Assembly (NCBI RefSeq): GCF_001677475.2
Contig: NZ_CP015229.1
Source of the DNA: Escherichia coli
GTDB lineage: Bacteria > Pseudomonadota > Gammaproteobacteria > Enterobacterales > Enterobacteriaceae
DNA length: 64,000 nt
Strand: one strand, 5' to 3'
Shown here in pieces: positions 7,269-35,666 of the stretch. The notes beneath the pieces are model-generated. The model saw nothing but the letters and a program-made list of their open reading frames with translations, made no database searches and was not told the DNA's origin. A program made the translations under genes and the position numbers. Each line of letters opens with the position of its first letter. Position 1 is the stretch's first letter.

Positions 7269-10061
<2,793 letters not shown>

Positions 10062-25650: not shown

Positions 25651-26547
25651 TTACGGTACGTCGTAACCCAGTGCCGCTTTACGGATACGGAACCATTGTT
25701 GACGGGTCATTTTCAGTGTTTCAGCTTCGACAGCTGCCCGTACGCGCTCAATTTTACCTGAGCCGATAATTGGCAGCGGCTGCGACGGTAAACGTAATAC
25801 CCAGGCGTAAACCACCTGTTCAATCGAGCCCGCGTTTAACTCCTCCGCCACCACAGCCAGTTCATCACGCAGCGGCTGGAAATAATCATCATTAAACAGA
25901 CGACCACCACCAAGGCAGGACCACGCCATCGGACGAACACGCAGTTGTTGCAGTTGGTCGAGCGTGCCATCCAGCAGTAACGGCTGATGCACCGGGGATA
26001 TTTCCACCTGATTAGTGGCAAGGGTAAACGGCAGGCGTGATTGCAACAGGGCAAATTGCGCGGGCGTGAAGTTGGATACGCCAAAATGGCGCACTTTGCC
26101 GCTCTGATGCAGATGTTTAAACGCGTCCGCCACTTCATCGGCATCCATTAACGGGTCTGGTCGGTGGATTAACAGCAGATCGAGATGATCGGTCGCGAGA
26201 TTAATTAGCGACTGTTCGGCGCTCTTAATGATGTGATCGCGGTCAGTGATGTAATGACCAATGACGTTTTCTTCACGCGCGGTCGTCGCGATACCGCATT
26301 TACTGACGATTTCCATCCGTTCACGCAGGTGAGGAGCCAGTTTCAGCGCCTCGCCAAACGCCGCTTCGCACTGATAGCCACCATAAATATCAGCATGGTC
26401 CACGGTGGTCACGCCGAGATCCAGATGCTCTTCAATAAAACTGACCAGCTGGCGGGCGGACATATTCCAGTCCATCAATCGCCAGTAGCCCATCACAAAA
26501 CGGGAAAACTCCGGGCCTTGCGGCGCAATAGTAATACGCTGAACCAT
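25651..26547 (-). CDS. ydhF: Aldo-keto reductase family oxidoreductase
   Basis: 298-aa ORF. Confidence 0.85.
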   Translation of the reverse strand: MVQRITIAPQGPEFSRFVMGYWRLMDWNMSARQLVSFIEEHLDLGVTTVDHADIYGGYQCEAAFGEALKLAPHLRERMEIVSKCGIATTAREENVIGHYITDRDHIIKSAEQSLINLATDHLDLLLIHRPDPLMDADEVADAFKHLHQSGKVRHFGVSNFTPAQFALLQSRLPFTLATNQVEISPVHQPLLLDGTLDQLQQLRVRPMAWSCLGGGRLFNDDYFQPLRDELAVVAEELNAGSIEQVVYAWVLRLPSQPLPIIGSGKIERVRAAVEAETLKMTRQQWFRIRKAALGYDVP

Positions 26548-26595
26548 AATCGCTTCCTCTTATCAGATATGAGAGGAGTATACGCAAGATTAGGC

Positions 26596-26835
26596 TCAAA
26601 AGAGTGATGGTTGCTCCGGTTCGTCTGATGACGCTGGCTTATTTGCGCGTAATTTGCGCATTAATCGCTGCCGACAAAGGCGCAGCACCTCTTGTTTTTC
26701 GCCATCGCTCATTTTATTCCAGTTAAAACGCTCATCCCGACTACGAAAACAGCCGCGACAAAACCCGCGTTCGTCAGACTGGCAAATTCCCCGGCACGGG
26801 CTCTGGACGGGAAAGAACTCTAATTGCTCCGCCAC
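26596..26835 (-). CDS. ydhL: DUF1289 cysteine-rich small protein
   Basis: 79 aa; CxxxC...CxxC cysteine pattern. Confidence 0.75.
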   Translation of the reverse strand: MAEQLEFFPVQSPCRGICQSDERGFCRGCFRSRDERFNWNKMSDGEKQEVLRLCRQRLMRKLRANKPASSDEPEQPSLF

Positions 26836-27031
26836 TTCGCCCTCCTCAGATAAGTTTTACTCTAAATAATTCGAGTTGCAGGAAGGCGACGAGTGAATGA
26901 ATCCCCTGGAGCTTACTAAAGTAAGTGACTGGGGTGAGTGAACGTGGTCGCAGCACATGCAACTTGAAGTATGACGAGTGTATTACCACTATTGAAGCTC
27001 TTAATACCCAAAGTAGCAACTTTGCTTGCAC

Positions 27032-27047
27032 TAGACCGACTGGTCTA
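27032..27047. promoter_or_regulatory. Putative NemR operator TAGACC-N4-GGTCTA
   Basis: 6-bp perfect inverted arms seen 15 bp upstream of nemR start; TetR-type operator architecture. Confidence 0.5.
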
Positions 27048-27061
27048 CTACACTCCAACGC

Positions 27062-27661
27062 ATGAACAAACACACCGAACATGATACTCGCGAACATCTC
27101 CTGGCGACGGGCGAGCAACTTTGCCTGCAACGTGGATTCACCGGGATGGGGCTAAGCGAATTACTAAAAACCGCTGAAGTGCCGAAAGGTTCCTTCTATC
27201 ACTACTTTCGCTCTAAAGAAGCGTTTGGCGTTGCTATGCTTGAGCGCCATTACGCCGCATATCACCAGCGACTGACTGAGTTGCTGCAATCCGGTGAAGG
27301 TAACTACCGCGACCGCATACTGGCTTATTACCAGCAAACACTGAACCAGTTTTGCCAACATGGAACCATCAGTGGTTGCCTGACAGTAAAACTCTCTGCC
27401 GAAGTGTGCGATCTGTCAGAAGATATGCGTAGCGCGATGGATAAAGGCGCTCGCGGCGTGATCGCCCTGCTCTCGCAGGCGCTGGAAAATGGCCGTGATA
27501 GCCATTGTTTAACCTTTTGTGGCGAACCGCTGCAACAGGCACAAGTGCTTTACGCACTATGGCTGGGTGCGAATCTGCAGGCCAAAATTTCGCGCAATTC
27601 CGAGCCACTGGAAAACGCGCTGGCACATGTAAAAACCATTATTGCGACGCCTGCCGTTTAG
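27062..27661 (+). CDS. nemR: TetR-family repressor NemR (electrophile-sensing)
   Basis: 199 aa; N-terminal TetR HTH. Confidence 0.88.
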   Translation: MNKHTEHDTREHLLATGEQLCLQRGFTGMGLSELLKTAEVPKGSFYHYFRSKEAFGVAMLERHYAAYHQRLTELLQSGEGNYRDRILAYYQQTLNQFCQHGTISGCLTVKLSAEVCDLSEDMRSAMDKGARGVIALLSQALENGRDSHCLTFCGEPLQQAQVLYALWLGANLQAKISRNSEPLENALAHVKTIIATPAV

Positions 27662-27697
27662 CAGGCATTTTTTATCACCAGACGACCGGGAGCCTTT

Positions 27698-28795
27698 ATG
27701 TCATCTGAAAAACTGTATTCCCCACTGAAAGTGGGCGCAATAACTGCGGCAAACCGTATTTTTATGGCACCGCTGACGCGTCTGCGCAGTATTGAACCGG
27801 GTGACATCCCTACCCCGTTGATGGCGGAATACTATCGCCAACGTGCCAGTGCCGGTTTGATTATTAGCGAAGCCACGCAAATTTCTGCCCAGGCAAAAGG
27901 GTATGCTGGTGCACCTGGCATCCATAGTCCGGAACAAATTGCCGCATGGAAAAAAATTACCGCTGGCGTTCATGCTGAAAATGGTCATATGGCCGTACAG
28001 CTGTGGCACACTGGACGAATTTCTCACGCCAGCCTGCAACCTGGCGGTCAGGCACCGGTAGCGCCTTCAGCACTTAGCGCGGGAACTCGTACTTCTCTGC
28101 GCGATGAAAATGGTCAGGCGATCCGTGTTGAAACATCCATGCCGCGTGCGCTTGAACTGGAAGAGATTCCGGGTATCGTCAATGATTTCCGTCAGGCCAT
28201 TGCTAACGCGCGTGAAGCCGGTTTTGATCTGGTAGAGCTCCACTCTGCTCATGGTTATTTGCTGCATCAGTTCCTTTCTCCTTCTTCAAACCATCGTACC
28301 GATCAGTACGGCGGCAGCGTGGAAAATCGCGCACGTCTGGTGCTGGAAGTGGTCGATGCAGGGATTGAAGAATGGGGTGCCGATCGCATTGGCATTCGCG
28401 TTTCGCCAATCGGTACTTTCCAGAACACAGATAACGGCCCGAATGAAGAAGCCGATGCACTGTATCTGATTGAACAACTGGGTAAACGCGGCATTGCTTA
28501 TCTGCATATGTCAGAACCAGATTGGGCGGGGGGTGAACCGTATACTGATGCGTTCCGCGAAAAAGTACGCGCCCGTTTCCACGGTCCGATTATCGGCGCA
28601 GGTGCATACACGGTAGAAAAAGCCGAAACGCTGATCGGCAAAGGGTTAATTGATGCGGTGGCATTTGGTCGTGACTGGATTGCGAACCCGGATCTGGTCG
28701 CCCGCTTGCAACGCAAAGCTGAGCTTAACCCACAGCGTGCCGAAAGTTTTTACGGTGGCGGCGCGGAAGGCTACACTGATTACCCGACGCTGTAA
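27698..28795 (+). CDS. nemA: N-ethylmaleimide reductase (Old Yellow Enzyme family, FMN)
   Basis: 365 aa; OYE TIM-barrel family. Confidence 0.92.
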
Positions 28796-28875
28796 TCCAA
28801 CATTGCGAGCGGCGCAAAGCCGCCGCTATACTAAAACAACATTTTGAATCTGTTAGCCATTTTGAGGATATAAAG

Positions 28876-29283
28876 ATGCGTCTTCTTCATACCATGCTGC
28901 GCGTTGGCGATCTGCAACGCTCCATCGATTTTTATACCAAAGTACTGGGCATGAAACTGCTGCGTACCAGCGAAAACCCGGAATACAAATACTCACTGGC
29001 GTTTGTTGGCTACGGCCCGGAAACCGAAGAAGCGGTGATTGAACTGACCTACAACTGGGGCGTGGATAAATACGAACTCGGCACTGCTTATGGTCACATC
29101 GCGCTTAGCGTTGATAACGCCGCTGAAGCGTGCGAAAAAATCCGTCAAAACGGGGGTAACGTGACCCGTGAAGCGGGTCCGGTAAAAGGCGGTACTACGA
29201 TTATCGCGTTTGTGGAAGATCCGGACGGTTACAAAATTGAGTTAATCGAAGAGAAAGACGCCGGTCGCGGTCTGGGCAACTAA
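28876..29283 (+). CDS. gloA: Glyoxalase I (lactoylglutathione lyase)
   Basis: 135 aa; VOC fold ([14 protein letters not shown]-terminus). Confidence 0.93.
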
Positions 29284-29385
29284 TCTCCTGCCGGGCGTGA
29301 ACTCCTCGCGCCCGCATCTTTACTGCATCGACAAGTAATATTTGTCATAATGCGCGCTGCAATTTATCCGTATTAAGAGAATCAG

Positions 29386-30033
29386 ATGTCCGATAACGCT
29401 CAACTTACCGGTCTGTGCGACCGTTTTCGTGGTTTTTATCCTGTTGTGATCGATGTTGAAACAGCCGGATTTAACGCCAAAACCGATGCGCTGCTTGAGA
29501 TTGCCACCATCACCCTGAAAATGGATGAACAAGGCTGGCTGATGCCGGACACCACATTACATTTCCACGTCGAACCATTTGTCGACGCAAATTTGCAGCC
29601 AGAGGCCCTCGCCTTCAACGGCATTGACCCGAACGATCCCGATCGCGGCGCGGTCAGCGAATACGAGGCGCTACACGAAATTTTTAAAGTTGTGCGTAAA
29701 GGTATTAAAGCGAGCGGTTGTAACCGCGCCATTATGGTGGCGCACAACGCCAATTTCGATCACAGCTTTATGATGGCCGCCGCAGAACGCGCCTCACTGA
29801 AACGTAACCCGTTCCACCCTTTCGCCACTTTTGACACTGCTGCACTGGCCGGGCTGGCACTCGGACAAACCGTATTGTCAAAGGCTTGCCAGACCGCTGG
29901 CATGGACTTCGACAGCACCCAGGCGCACTCCGCGCTGTACGACACCGAACGCACTGCTGTGCTGTTTTGTGAAATCGTCAACCGCTGGAAACGTCTGGGA
30001 GGCTGGCCGCTACCTGCCGCCGAAGAGGTGTAA
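29386..30033 (+). CDS. rnt: Ribonuclease T (DEDDh exonuclease)
   Basis: 215 aa; DVETAG exonuclease motif. Confidence 0.93.
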
Positions 30034-33100: not shown

Positions 33101-33257
33101 CTGTATGGATGATGCCGCCAGGCTGCGCGATGCCCTCGGCGTACGACTACCAGAGTCACTGCCAGAGATTTATTTGCACCGAGTCAGTTACCCGCTTCGC
33201 GACCTCTTTCTGCGCTATCTCCGGGCTCATGCTCTGGTCACGTCTGAACAACTGGCT
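30126..33257 (+). pseudogene. lhr: lhr 5' fragment (codons 1-1044 of ATP-dependent helicase Lhr), truncated by IS insertion
   Basis: Helicase Walker A APTGSGKT and DEVH box present; the reading frame continues 58 codons into the IS before a stop at 33431. Confidence 0.85.
33250..33257. repeat. Target-site duplication AACTGGCT (left copy)
   Basis: Identical 8-mer at 35667-35674; removing the IS plus one copy restores an uninterrupted lhr frame. Confidence 0.8.
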
Positions 33258-33321
33258 ATTAGACGTCAACTAGTTTTGCCGACTCGCGCCAACTATACTG
33301 GCCGCACCCTTCAGGGCGACA

Positions 33322-34077
33322 TCAAGTCGCGCTTGTTACTGCCTTCGCTGTCTTTTTCCTGTAGCTTTCCCCTTTCAGTTCGAACATATATCCGTGATGG
33401 ATCAGCCTGTCTGCCGCAGCCACCGCCATAGTCTCATCCACGAAGATGCTGCCCCACATGCTGAACGGATGGTTACTGGTTATCACCAGGCTCCCACGTT
33501 CATAGCGATGCGCTATTAACTCGAACAGCACACCCGTTTCGGCACTATCGCGTTTGACATAGCCAAGATCATCCACCACTATCACCCGGTAGCGATCCAG
33601 TTTCAGTAGCAGCTCATTCAGTTTCAACTGAGCTCTGGCTTTACGTAGTTCCTGCAACAGCTCTCCTGCGCTGTAGAACCGGGCCCGGTAGCCCTGACCT
33701 ACTACGCCATCCACGATCGCTGCCGCCAGATGGCTTTTCCCCAACCCGCTGGCTCCGAACAGCAGAACGTTTTCTCCTGCATCAACCCAGTCTGTCGTTT
33801 CACAGAGTTGCCGGAACTGAGCTCCATTCAGTTCCGGCACCTGACTGAAGTCGTATTCGCTCAGCGTTTTGGCAACTGGCAACCGGGCCTCCTTTTTATA
33901 ACGACGCAGTTTTTCACTCTCGCGCCACAGGAGTTCTTCATTGCATAGCGTCAGAAGATAGCGCGATGGTGTCCAGCCTTCTGCCAGCGCTCGTTTTTCC
34001 AGAGCGTGCCATTCAGCTCCAACTCGTGTCAGGCGTAGTTTACGCAGGCTATGTTCAAGGTGATGGATATTGCTCAC
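33322..34077 (-). CDS. istB: IS21-family helper ATPase IstB
   Basis: 251 aa; Walker A GASGLGKSHLA and Walker B VIVVDDLGY; overlaps istA by 4 nt. Confidence 0.88.
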   Translation of the reverse strand: MSNIHHLEHSLRKLRLTRVGAEWHALEKRALAEGWTPSRYLLTLCNEELLWRESEKLRRYKKEARLPVAKTLSEYDFSQVPELNGAQFRQLCETTDWVDAGENVLLFGASGLGKSHLAAAIVDGVVGQGYRARFYSAGELLQELRKARAQLKLNELLLKLDRYRVIVVDDLGYVKRDSAETGVLFELIAHRYERGSLVITSNHPFSMWGSIFVDETMAVAAADRLIHHGYMFELKGESYRKKTAKAVTSAT

Positions 34078-35573
34078 TGCGAACCTCCCTTGCCACGCAG
34101 TAGTTGCTCATAACTGCTCAGGTTATGCTGTATCACATTGACTACCGGCAACGCCTTTTCTTTTATACCCAGGAAGCGCATCAGCCGGTGCAGATCCACG
34201 TTTCCCGGGGTATTCAGCATCTGCTCCATACCTTTTGCCACGACTGAGATATCGTCGTATCCTGCAGCCAGTTTCAGGGCATGTACCATCAGCCTTCCTG
34301 CCATATCGGGCTCCAGATGATTACATAAGCGACGCCACAGCCTCCGCCATTCATCGTCCGGCAGGATGTCATTTCTCAGCGTTGCATGGCAGAACGCACC
34401 GGGCTTTTTTGCCAGACTGTCGATCACATGTCGGAAGTCGATACGACGGGCCCGCGTCTTCCCTTTTTCTGGTCTGACGCGAGGGCAGCTCATGACCTCG
34501 CTGCTGCCAACGTAACAGCTCAGACGATCGTCCCATAACCTGACCCGTAACAGTTGACCTACAAGCCGGGAAGGTACGCTGTAGACGACGTGCTTCACAT
34601 TGATGGTACTGCTGCGACTAACCCTCACAGTCAGCTCATCATAGTCAGCACTGCGACGAAGCGGCAGCGGTTTCAGATGAAGACGTTCTTCCTTGACCAG
34701 ATCCTGATTGTTACGGTTGTGCCGCATAACCTGCTGAGTGATGAAGGCCTGATATTCTTCTATGGTGCTGAAGTCGTTACTGCCCCGCAGTATCAGCGCC
34801 TGACAGATACGCCTTTTCAGATGTCCGTGGGCACTTTCAACCGAGCCATTTTCGTGGCCCCGACCGGCATTATTGTGTACGCCCTGCATTCCGTAGTGCT
34901 GACAGAGAGTAGCATAACGCTCAGTCAGCTCGCGGCGTCCATCTTCGCCCTGTTGTTTCCATGCTGCCCTCAGGCTGTCCGTTTTATGTTCTACCGGCAC
35001 TCCGCCCAGTTGTCCGAGGGCTTCCTGCAGGCCTTCAGCCAGAGCAGAGAAGCTCTCACCACCCAGAACAACCCGCATCCAGCTCCAGTGGCTCCATTCC
35101 AGACGGAAGTGATACAACTTATGCGCCAACAACTTACCGGCGATGGTGACAACTACACCTTTCAGTTCAGTAAAGTCCGACAGGCCTCGCAGGCCGGGCT
35201 GATGTTGCTGGCGGAACATGACCTCCTGCTCTGTACCATACTGTAGTTTCCATTCGCGAACCCGCCGTTGCATTGTTCTTCGAAGGCTGTTGGGGTACTG
35301 GCCGGGATATTTATCCTGTAGCATCTCCAGTAGAGTTGTTGGTGTCAGAGCCGGCCTCTCTTTCAACAGAGGAACAAGCATGCTGTCCCACACAGCTTCC
35401 AGAGGATCTTTGCGTGTGCGCCAGTGCCGAACACTGTTTTTTGCCCACTCTCCTTTTTCGATCCGACGACCAGAACGGACTGAGATACCAGCCTTCATGG
35501 CCGAGATATGCTGAGTTATACCTTTCTTACGCTGAGTCATATAGTAACTGACCTGAGAAGTATTGAGCGTCAC
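34074..35573 (-). CDS. istA: IS21-family transposase IstA
   Basis: 499 aa; N-terminal HTH region and central DDE integrase-like domain; gene order istA then istB typical of IS21 family. Confidence 0.85.
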   Translation of the reverse strand: MTLNTSQVSYYMTQRKKGITQHISAMKAGISVRSGRRIEKGEWAKNSVRHWRTRKDPLEAVWDSMLVPLLKERPALTPTTLLEMLQDKYPGQYPNSLRRTMQRRVREWKLQYGTEQEVMFRQQHQPGLRGLSDFTELKGVVVTIAGKLLAHKLYHFRLEWSHWSWMRVVLGGESFSALAEGLQEALGQLGGVPVEHKTDSLRAAWKQQGEDGRRELTERYATLCQHYGMQGVHNNAGRGHENGSVESAHGHLKRRICQALILRGSNDFSTIEEYQAFITQQVMRHNRNNQDLVKEERLHLKPLPLRRSADYDELTVRVSRSSTINVKHVVYSVPSRLVGQLLRVRLWDDRLSCYVGSSEVMSCPRVRPEKGKTRARRIDFRHVIDSLAKKPGAFCHATLRNDILPDDEWRRLWRRLCNHLEPDMAGRLMVHALKLAAGYDDISVVAKGMEQMLNTPGNVDLHRLMRFLGIKEKALPVVNVIQHNLSSYEQLLRGKGGSQ

Positions 35574-35666
35574 GCCATTTCCTGTTGGATCATGTAAATG
35601 ACACTCAGGTTACAAAACCGGCCAGAATAATCGGCGCCAGGCGGACTGAGTTATTGTCGTCTCATA

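Follow-up and report, generated by a model that had tools for sequence, protein, structure and literature searches.

The question raised by this locus is whether the perfect inverted repeat lying just ahead of nemR is a working operator and, if so, which protein uses it. In the preliminary description of this DNA, TAGACC-N4-GGTCTA had been read as a palindrome through which NemR would repress its own gene. In the window, by which is meant the whole stretch of 64,000 nucleotides (64 kb) that was analysed, the repeat upstream of nemR is indeed exact: TAGACCGACTGGTCTA occupies positions 27032-27047, with perfect 6-bp arms TAGACC and GGTCTA around the 4-nt centre GACT. It ends 14 nt before the ATG of nemR (27062) and its centre lies at -22.5. 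The interval originally assigned to it, 26836-27061, does hold the palindrome but equals the entire 226-bp ydhL-nemR intergenic region, the palindrome itself being confined to 27032-27047. The genes on either side are the following.

26596-26835, minus strand: ydhL (DUF1289), the divergent neighbour.
27062-27661, plus strand: nemR, TetR-family repressor of 199 aa (PDB 4yze, E = 1e-123; Pfam TetR_N and TetR_C_13).
27698-28795, plus strand: nemA, N-ethylmaleimide reductase (NF007899, 765 bits), preceded by a Shine-Dalgarno sequence of its own, GGGAG (27688-27692).
28876-29283, plus strand: gloA, glyoxalase I (NF007629, 305 bits).

These matches bear out the gene names nemR, nemA and gloA that had been given from the sequence alone. 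The scores of nemA and gloA are above the NCBIfam cut-offs, and RefSeq uses the names ydhL, nemR and nemA for the homologous E. coli genes. In NCBIfam no NemR model was found above cut-off, the best match being CurR with 199 bits against a cut-off of 300. The NemR protein of the window is the common (commonest) E. coli allele and keeps Cys21, Cys98, Cys106, Cys116, Cys149, Cys153 and Lys175, which are all the published sensor residues. A promoter-like site (28803-28832) is found ahead of gloA and a terminator-like hairpin (29292-29314) after it. This agrees with the published account, in which nemA transcription reads through into gloA, a gene without a marked upstream terminator and with a predicted promoter of its own (PMC3739934).

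TAGACC-N4-GGTCTA has one exact match in the 64-kb window, where the next-best sites carry three mismatches, and none was obtained in 100 shuffles. The symmetry of the motif by itself has no significance, and the case for function is made by conservation and position. Perfect 6+4+6 inverted repeats are common, 25 being observed in the window against about 15.6 expected, and two of them are found in the ydhL-nemR intergenic region, so that the palindrome might be thought a chance inverted repeat in promoter DNA without any protein partner. The second of these repeats, CAAAGT-AGCA-ACTTTG (27009-27024), lies 7 bp upstream of the NemR box, overlapping the putative -35 hexamer of ydhL and just upstream of that of nemR. 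It is conserved in Escherichia only and, being unconserved outside this genus, is an example of how an unselected repeat looks. The arms of the NemR box, in contrast, hardly vary, or do not vary at all, across 38 distinct promoters of many genera, amid flanks that are randomised. Moreover, genetic and biochemical data on the site have been published (PMC5297802, PMC2475637, PMC13178969). A chance origin is hardly credible in view of these observations. An Rfam search gave no match on 27032-27047, and a role of the palindrome at the RNA level was ruled out, since it lies upstream of both mapped transcription starts (27062 on the plus strand and 26984 on the minus strand) and is not transcribed.

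The position of the box is best appreciated from the elements of the nemR core promoter.

27026-27031, plus strand: nemR -35 hexamer TTGCAC, abutting the box; TTG in 38/38 promoters; its position fits the published start site.
27032-27047, no strand: NemR box (operator) TAGACC-GACT-GGTCTA; unique exact match, arms invariant or nearly so in 38 promoters; also a published RutR site.
27049-27054, plus strand: nemR -10 hexamer TACACT, 17 bp after the -35 hexamer and ending 7 nt before the mapped start; TA...T in 38/38 promoters.
27062, plus strand: nemR transcription start, the A of the ATG; published K-12 mapping, transferred by identity from -50 to +1.

The 17-bp spacer of this promoter consists of the 16-bp box and 1 nt, and the box spans -30 to -15. 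The promoter was defined from the conservation among orthologues and from published 5' ends, not from a consensus scan. No promoter came out of a consensus sigma-70 scan over 26500-27300, as the hexamers of nemR match the consensus at only 7 of 12 positions.

The stretch between the -10 hexamer and the ATG is short (6-8 nt in the orthologues, 10 in Serratia), unconserved and devoid of a Shine-Dalgarno sequence, from which a leaderless mRNA is predicted, and the published 5' mapping agrees. In K-12, 15 reads place the nemR start at position 1724047, which is where the start codon begins, and the 5'UTR is given as 0 (Kim et al. 2012, PMC3415461, Table S1). Table S4 of the same work, "Leaderless mRNAs", includes E. 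coli nemR together with K. pneumoniae ydhM (20 reads) (Kim et al. 2012, PMC3415461). The 51 nt of the window from -50 to +1 (27012-27062) are identical to the E. coli K-12 string given in Table S1 of Kim et al. 2012, and to the E. coli loci compared. The nemR mRNA is leaderless in E. coli and Klebsiella and, judging from the identity to K-12, it would be so in the strain of the window too. An operator placed in the spacer of the promoter of a leaderless mRNA is implicit in these published data, and no explicit statement of this anatomy was found in the literature. [quoted passage not shown]

For the conservation analysis, 80 loci of NemR relatives were taken from a species-representative genome collection and their upstream regions were anchored on the best match to the box. 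The 38 distinct promoters come from Escherichia, Citrobacter, Enterobacter, Kluyvera, Pluralibacter, Cedecea, Providencia, Budvicia, Erwinia, Yersinia, Serratia and Hafnia, and from a few metagenome bins. Presence of the motif in orthologous promoters, by which the operator reading could be checked, was found throughout: the box occurs at the same position in 38/38 promoters with 0-2 mismatches, down to about 46% identity of the NemR protein. The layout is fixed, with a -35 hexamer, TTGCAy or TTGACC, that adjoins the box directly on its 5' side, the 16-bp box itself, 1 nt, a -10 hexamer TAnnnT and the ATG. Information reaches 2 bits at the TTG of the -35 hexamer, at G3-A4-C5 and G11-G12-T13-C14 of the box and at TA...T of the -10 hexamer, and is about 0 bits from -40 to the -35 hexamer and from the -10 hexamer to the ATG. 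The spacer DNA of sigma-70 promoters is not normally conserved or under selection, and its conservation here therefore indicates that a protein is bound there. The centre of the box varies among the orthologues (GACT, GAAC, GATC, AATC, GATT and others) and is asymmetric, position 8 being A in 37 of the 38 promoters and its symmetry mate variable. A symmetric dimer site alone leaves this asymmetry unexplained.

With respect to the protein concerned, NemR is reported, by secondary citation of Umezawa 2008, Gray 2013 and Lee 2013, to contact exactly these 16 bp. At its own promoter NemR acts as a repressor by way of an inverted-repeat operator (PMC13178969), and the operon escapes repression when the NemR-binding site carries point mutations (PMC5297802). 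In addition, the suppressors of a rutE deletion include nemR promoter mutations "predicted to eliminate repression" (PMC3045373). We are therefore confident that the palindrome is the NemR operator and that it fills the sigma-70 promoter spacer of a leaderless nemR-nemA(-gloA) transcript. The sequence of the box, its identity with K-12, its place in the promoter and its conservation are contributed by the present analysis, while the literature supplies the start site, the binding of NemR and of RutR, and derepression. The suggested autorepression thus finds support in the core-promoter position of the box, in its conservation among orthologues and in the published repression by NemR of its own promoter. 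The operator is not novel: it has the same sequence as the K-12 NemR operator and is also a known RutR site. Its re-identification serves mainly as a positive control, indicating that a true operator can be found by reading raw sequence. Moreover, that operator and promoter spacer of a leaderless transcript are one and the same explains why so short an upstream region is enough. As an anchor for defining a regulon, the other use proposed for it, the motif turned out to be weak, since genomic SELEX in E. coli gave nemR as the single NemR target, with nemRA-gloA as the regulon (PMC5934670), and the 64-kb window holds no second copy.

The mechanism that can be proposed is simple. A NemR dimer would sit at -30 to -15, between TTGCAC and TACACT, with one helix-turn-helix on each TAGAC(C) arm. 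Steric occlusion of RNA polymerase is standard for TetR-family repressors, and the geometry suggests that bound NemR would likewise keep the polymerase off this promoter. NemR would in this way restrain its own synthesis, that of NemA and, by readthrough, that of GloA. NemR is inactivated through its cysteines by electrophiles and HOCl. According to the literature, modification of these cysteines by N-ethylmaleimide, methylglyoxal, quinones and reactive chlorine species would take NemR off the DNA and derepress the operon. Since nemR is the first gene and leaderless, without a Shine-Dalgarno sequence, while nemA has a good one (GGGAG), one transcript may yield little repressor and much enzyme.

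Conservation alone does not identify the responsible protein, as RutR, the regulator of pyrimidine utilisation, binds this 16-mer in vivo and in vitro (PMC2475637). The box could then be primarily a RutR site (consensus TTGACCAnnTGGTCAA) which ties nemRA to pyrimidine catabolism, NemR binding being secondary. The same 16-mer is a RutR ChIP-chip target, placed at -22.5 of ydhM and matching TTGACCAnnTGGTCAA at 11 of 14 positions, and it is not among the four targets with low affinity in the RutR EMSA (PMC2475637). It also has A4 and T13 of the RutR consensus, described as the most important positions (PMC2475637) and invariant in all orthologues. A physiological link exists as well, since mutations in nemR or its operator suppress the loss of rutE (PMC3045373). 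Nevertheless, a review states that RutR binding has no part in how nemRA-gloA is regulated (PMC5297802), and at most RutR targets little or no effect on transcript levels was seen (PMC2475637). The box goes with nemR and not with the rut genes, and in nearly all orthologues its positions 2, 7 and 15 do not agree with the RutR consensus. A box belonging primarily to RutR is thus very improbable. As the 16-mer is a documented RutR site (PMC2475637), the box is nevertheless not exclusive to NemR.

The DNA on the ydhL side of the NemR operator contains two further features.

26857-26980, no strand: ERIC/IRU-type repeat of 124 bp between ydhL and the promoters, with terminal inverted repeats at 26859-26880 and 26958-26979.
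26984-27019, minus strand: putative divergent ydhL promoter, with hexamers read from the sequence (-35 TTGCTA at 27014-27019, -10 TTCAAT at 26991-26996) and start at 26984.

The core promoters of ydhL and nemR stand back to back with their -35 hexamers 6 bp apart. The ydhL -35 hexamer lies 12 bp upstream of the box, which would come at about -48 to -63 of ydhL, and the box could in principle be a shared operator that also controls ydhL and adds it to the regulon. For the K-12 start of ydhL (1723969), on the other hand, there are no more than 2 reads (Kim et al. 2012, PMC3415461, Table S1). Moreover, ydhL adjoins nemR in only part of the orthologues whereas the box is kept in all of them, and the DNA between box and ydhL is unconserved. 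In the window 124 bp of ERIC sequence have been added to the ydhL leader and the box is untouched. Joint control of ydhL is for these reasons unlikely. A box primarily for RutR, a chance repeat and an operator shared with ydhL all fit the observations worse than a NemR operator does.

The stretch 26857-26980 is an ERIC/IRU repeat. Compared with the empty E. coli site it represents 124 extra bases, has 22-nt terminal arms that are 77% complementary and central arms of 15 nt, and matches the primers ERIC2 and ERIC1R (strings verified in the literature) at 21/22 and 18/22 positions, respectively. In Rfam it gave only a sub-threshold hit to V_AS5 (31 bits, gathering score 96). E. coli genomes have copies of the element at 6 places (median), and the 64-kb window has one. 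None of 5,426 complete E. coli genomes carries ERIC at the ydhL-nemR locus, and in six other contigs with an identical NemR protein the ydhL-nemR gap is 102 bp, too short for it. At the same site Escherichia albertii NBRC 107761 carries a copy with 89% identity (L003 1300-1418), which means that the element is either ancestral and was lost from mainstream E. coli, or the site is a recurrent target. The repeat stops 82 bp short of the nemR start site, leaving the operator untouched. It is probably located inside the 5' leader of ydhL, at +5, and would lengthen this leader from 25 to 149 nt if the K-12 start holds; the folding of the resulting leader is modest (z-score -1.9). The insertion is a minor observation that may be new.

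Other repeated and mobile sequences were seen elsewhere in the window. The lhr gene (from 30126) is interrupted after 1,101 codons by ISEc10, of the IS21 family, at about 33256-35580, with istB (33322-34077) and istA (34074-35573) on the minus strand. The 16-mer CAGAACAACAGGTCGA occurs four times with an exact period of 96 bp, starting at 9577, 9673, 9769 and 9865 (window 9577-9880), a spacing that points to tandem repetition of a 96-bp unit, probably within a gene. With regard to the origin of the DNA, the best nucleotide identity to the 5,426 complete E. coli genomes was 98.9% for ydhL-nemR and 99.4% for nemA-gloA-rnt (window 26596-30033), and the source lineage is therefore unrepresented among the complete RefSeq E. 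coli genomes.

If the NemR operator stands before nemR, it may also be asked what separates nemR from nemA. Two features were found at this junction.

27649-27673, plus strand: terminator-like hairpin GCCTGC-cgttta-GCAGGC over the nemR stop codon (27659-27661), followed by T6 at 27668-27673.
27678-27689, plus strand: remnant of a second box, CCAGACGACCGG, before nemA, its GGTCTA half deleted in Escherichia.

The stem of the E. coli hairpin is only 6 bp. A hairpin and a T-run at the end of nemR are present in most of the 28 other loci that were folded, with differing stem sequences, and a few of these loci (L027, L029, L034, L035 and L037) have no clear hairpin. The genes nemR and nemA are reported as a single operon (PMC5297802), and the hairpin at 27649-27673 falls within it. 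The Term-seq supplement of Adams 2021 has no entry for nemR or nemA.

A second box, aCTAG(A/T)CGAC(C/T)GGTCTA, lies between nemR and nemA in 35/35 other loci examined (L004-L035, L037, L038 and L081; mostly Enterobacterales, plus Leeia and a Moraxellaceae MAG), with 10 of its 16 positions invariant. Its distance from the ATG of nemA is 10-18 nt in Enterobacterales, 21 in the Moraxellaceae MAG and 51 in Leeia, and its half-sites are 1 bp closer than those of the nemR box (TAGAC-N5-GTCTA). The window and E. coli L002 have four mismatches to this box, and their nemR-nemA intergenic region measures 35-36 nt as against 44-90 nt (mostly 51-58) in the others. In Escherichia, a deletion of about 9 bp has taken the invariant GGTCTA half of the second box. 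Of 46 distant NemR-like regulator genes (L036-L081), 37 are likewise preceded by a CTAGAC-N5-GTCTAG box, about 20-55 bp from the start, in Burkholderia, Paraburkholderia, Vibrio, Photobacterium, Pseudomonas, Leeia and others (beta-, gamma- and alpha-proteobacteria). The 16-bp nemR box looks like a derived variant of this N5 form. When a sigma-70 promoter was sought beside the second box, no conserved TAnnnT was present in the Citrobacter/Enterobacter group, and TAATAT follows the box only in Yersinia and Serratia. A minor K-12 5' end (3 reads) has been mapped to a point 19 nt ahead of the nemA ATG (Kim et al. 2012, PMC3415461). It corresponds to window position 27679, where the T-run has just ended and the second-box remnant begins, and may reflect RNA processing or a vestigial promoter.

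It can be tentatively proposed, as a possibility somewhat short of even chances, that the nemRA control region of E. coli is a reduced form of an ancestral two-operator design, in which Escherichia lost the second box and kept a weaker hairpin. No mention of a second box before nemA was found in the searchable literature, and its loss is a minor observation that may be new. If NemR does act at the second box, whether the box serves as a roadblock or controls a nemA promoter as its operator, expression of nemA in most Enterobacterales would no longer be tied to the basal transcription by which NemR is maintained, NemR would recognise two half-site spacings, and the single-target description would be valid only for Escherichia. 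Should this be true, the conclusions drawn in E. coli (a single target and a simple nemRA operon) would not be directly transferable to Klebsiella, Enterobacter, Citrobacter, Yersinia and Serratia, in which the electrophile and bleach defence controlled by NemR matters for host colonisation.

Among known systems the closest is the K-12 nemRA-gloA operator, with which the window shares the 16-mer, both hexamers and the complete 51-nt stretch between -50 and +1, together with the gene order ydhL / nemR-nemA-gloA-rnt and the common E. coli NemR allele. There is no difference in the operator, and upstream of it the strain of the window adds the 124-bp ERIC element. The RutR box TTGACCAnnTGGTCAA is likewise a 16-bp even palindrome with GACC/GGTC cores, from which the nemR box differs in having TA instead of TT, G7 instead of A7 and TA instead of AA.

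The distant NemR-like CTAGAC-N5-GTCTAG boxes have the TAGAC/GTCTA half-sites in common with the nemR box, often have the centre GACY and lie about 30 bp before the start codon, but their half-sites are 1 bp closer and form an odd palindrome of 15/17 bp. Among the loci of NemR relatives examined, the 16-bp even form is confined to the nemR promoters of Enterobacterales and to Vogesella. A homologue match of NemR, PDB 4l62, is a structure which we take to be P. aeruginosa PA2196 bound to its operator.

The TetR/tetO systems of Tn10 and Tn1721 resemble the NemR system in three respects, namely a palindromic operator over the promoter of the repressor gene, release by inducer and a leaderless repressor mRNA; the tetR mRNA of Tn1721 has been counted among the two leaderless mRNAs best studied in E. 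coli. They differ in that NemR is freed by covalent modification of cysteines whereas TetR is freed by reversible ligand binding, and in having two operators between divergent genes where NemR has a single operator and a co-directional operon. Finally, AltR of Pantoea ananatis is a NemR-related TetR repressor with a perfect inverted repeat, CAATCTAC-N6-GTAGATTG, over its own -10 hexamer and with cysteine-based derepression (PMC13178969). Its half-site sequence is different from that of NemR, and its inducers are thiosulfinates rather than N-ethylmaleimide or diamide (PMC13178969).
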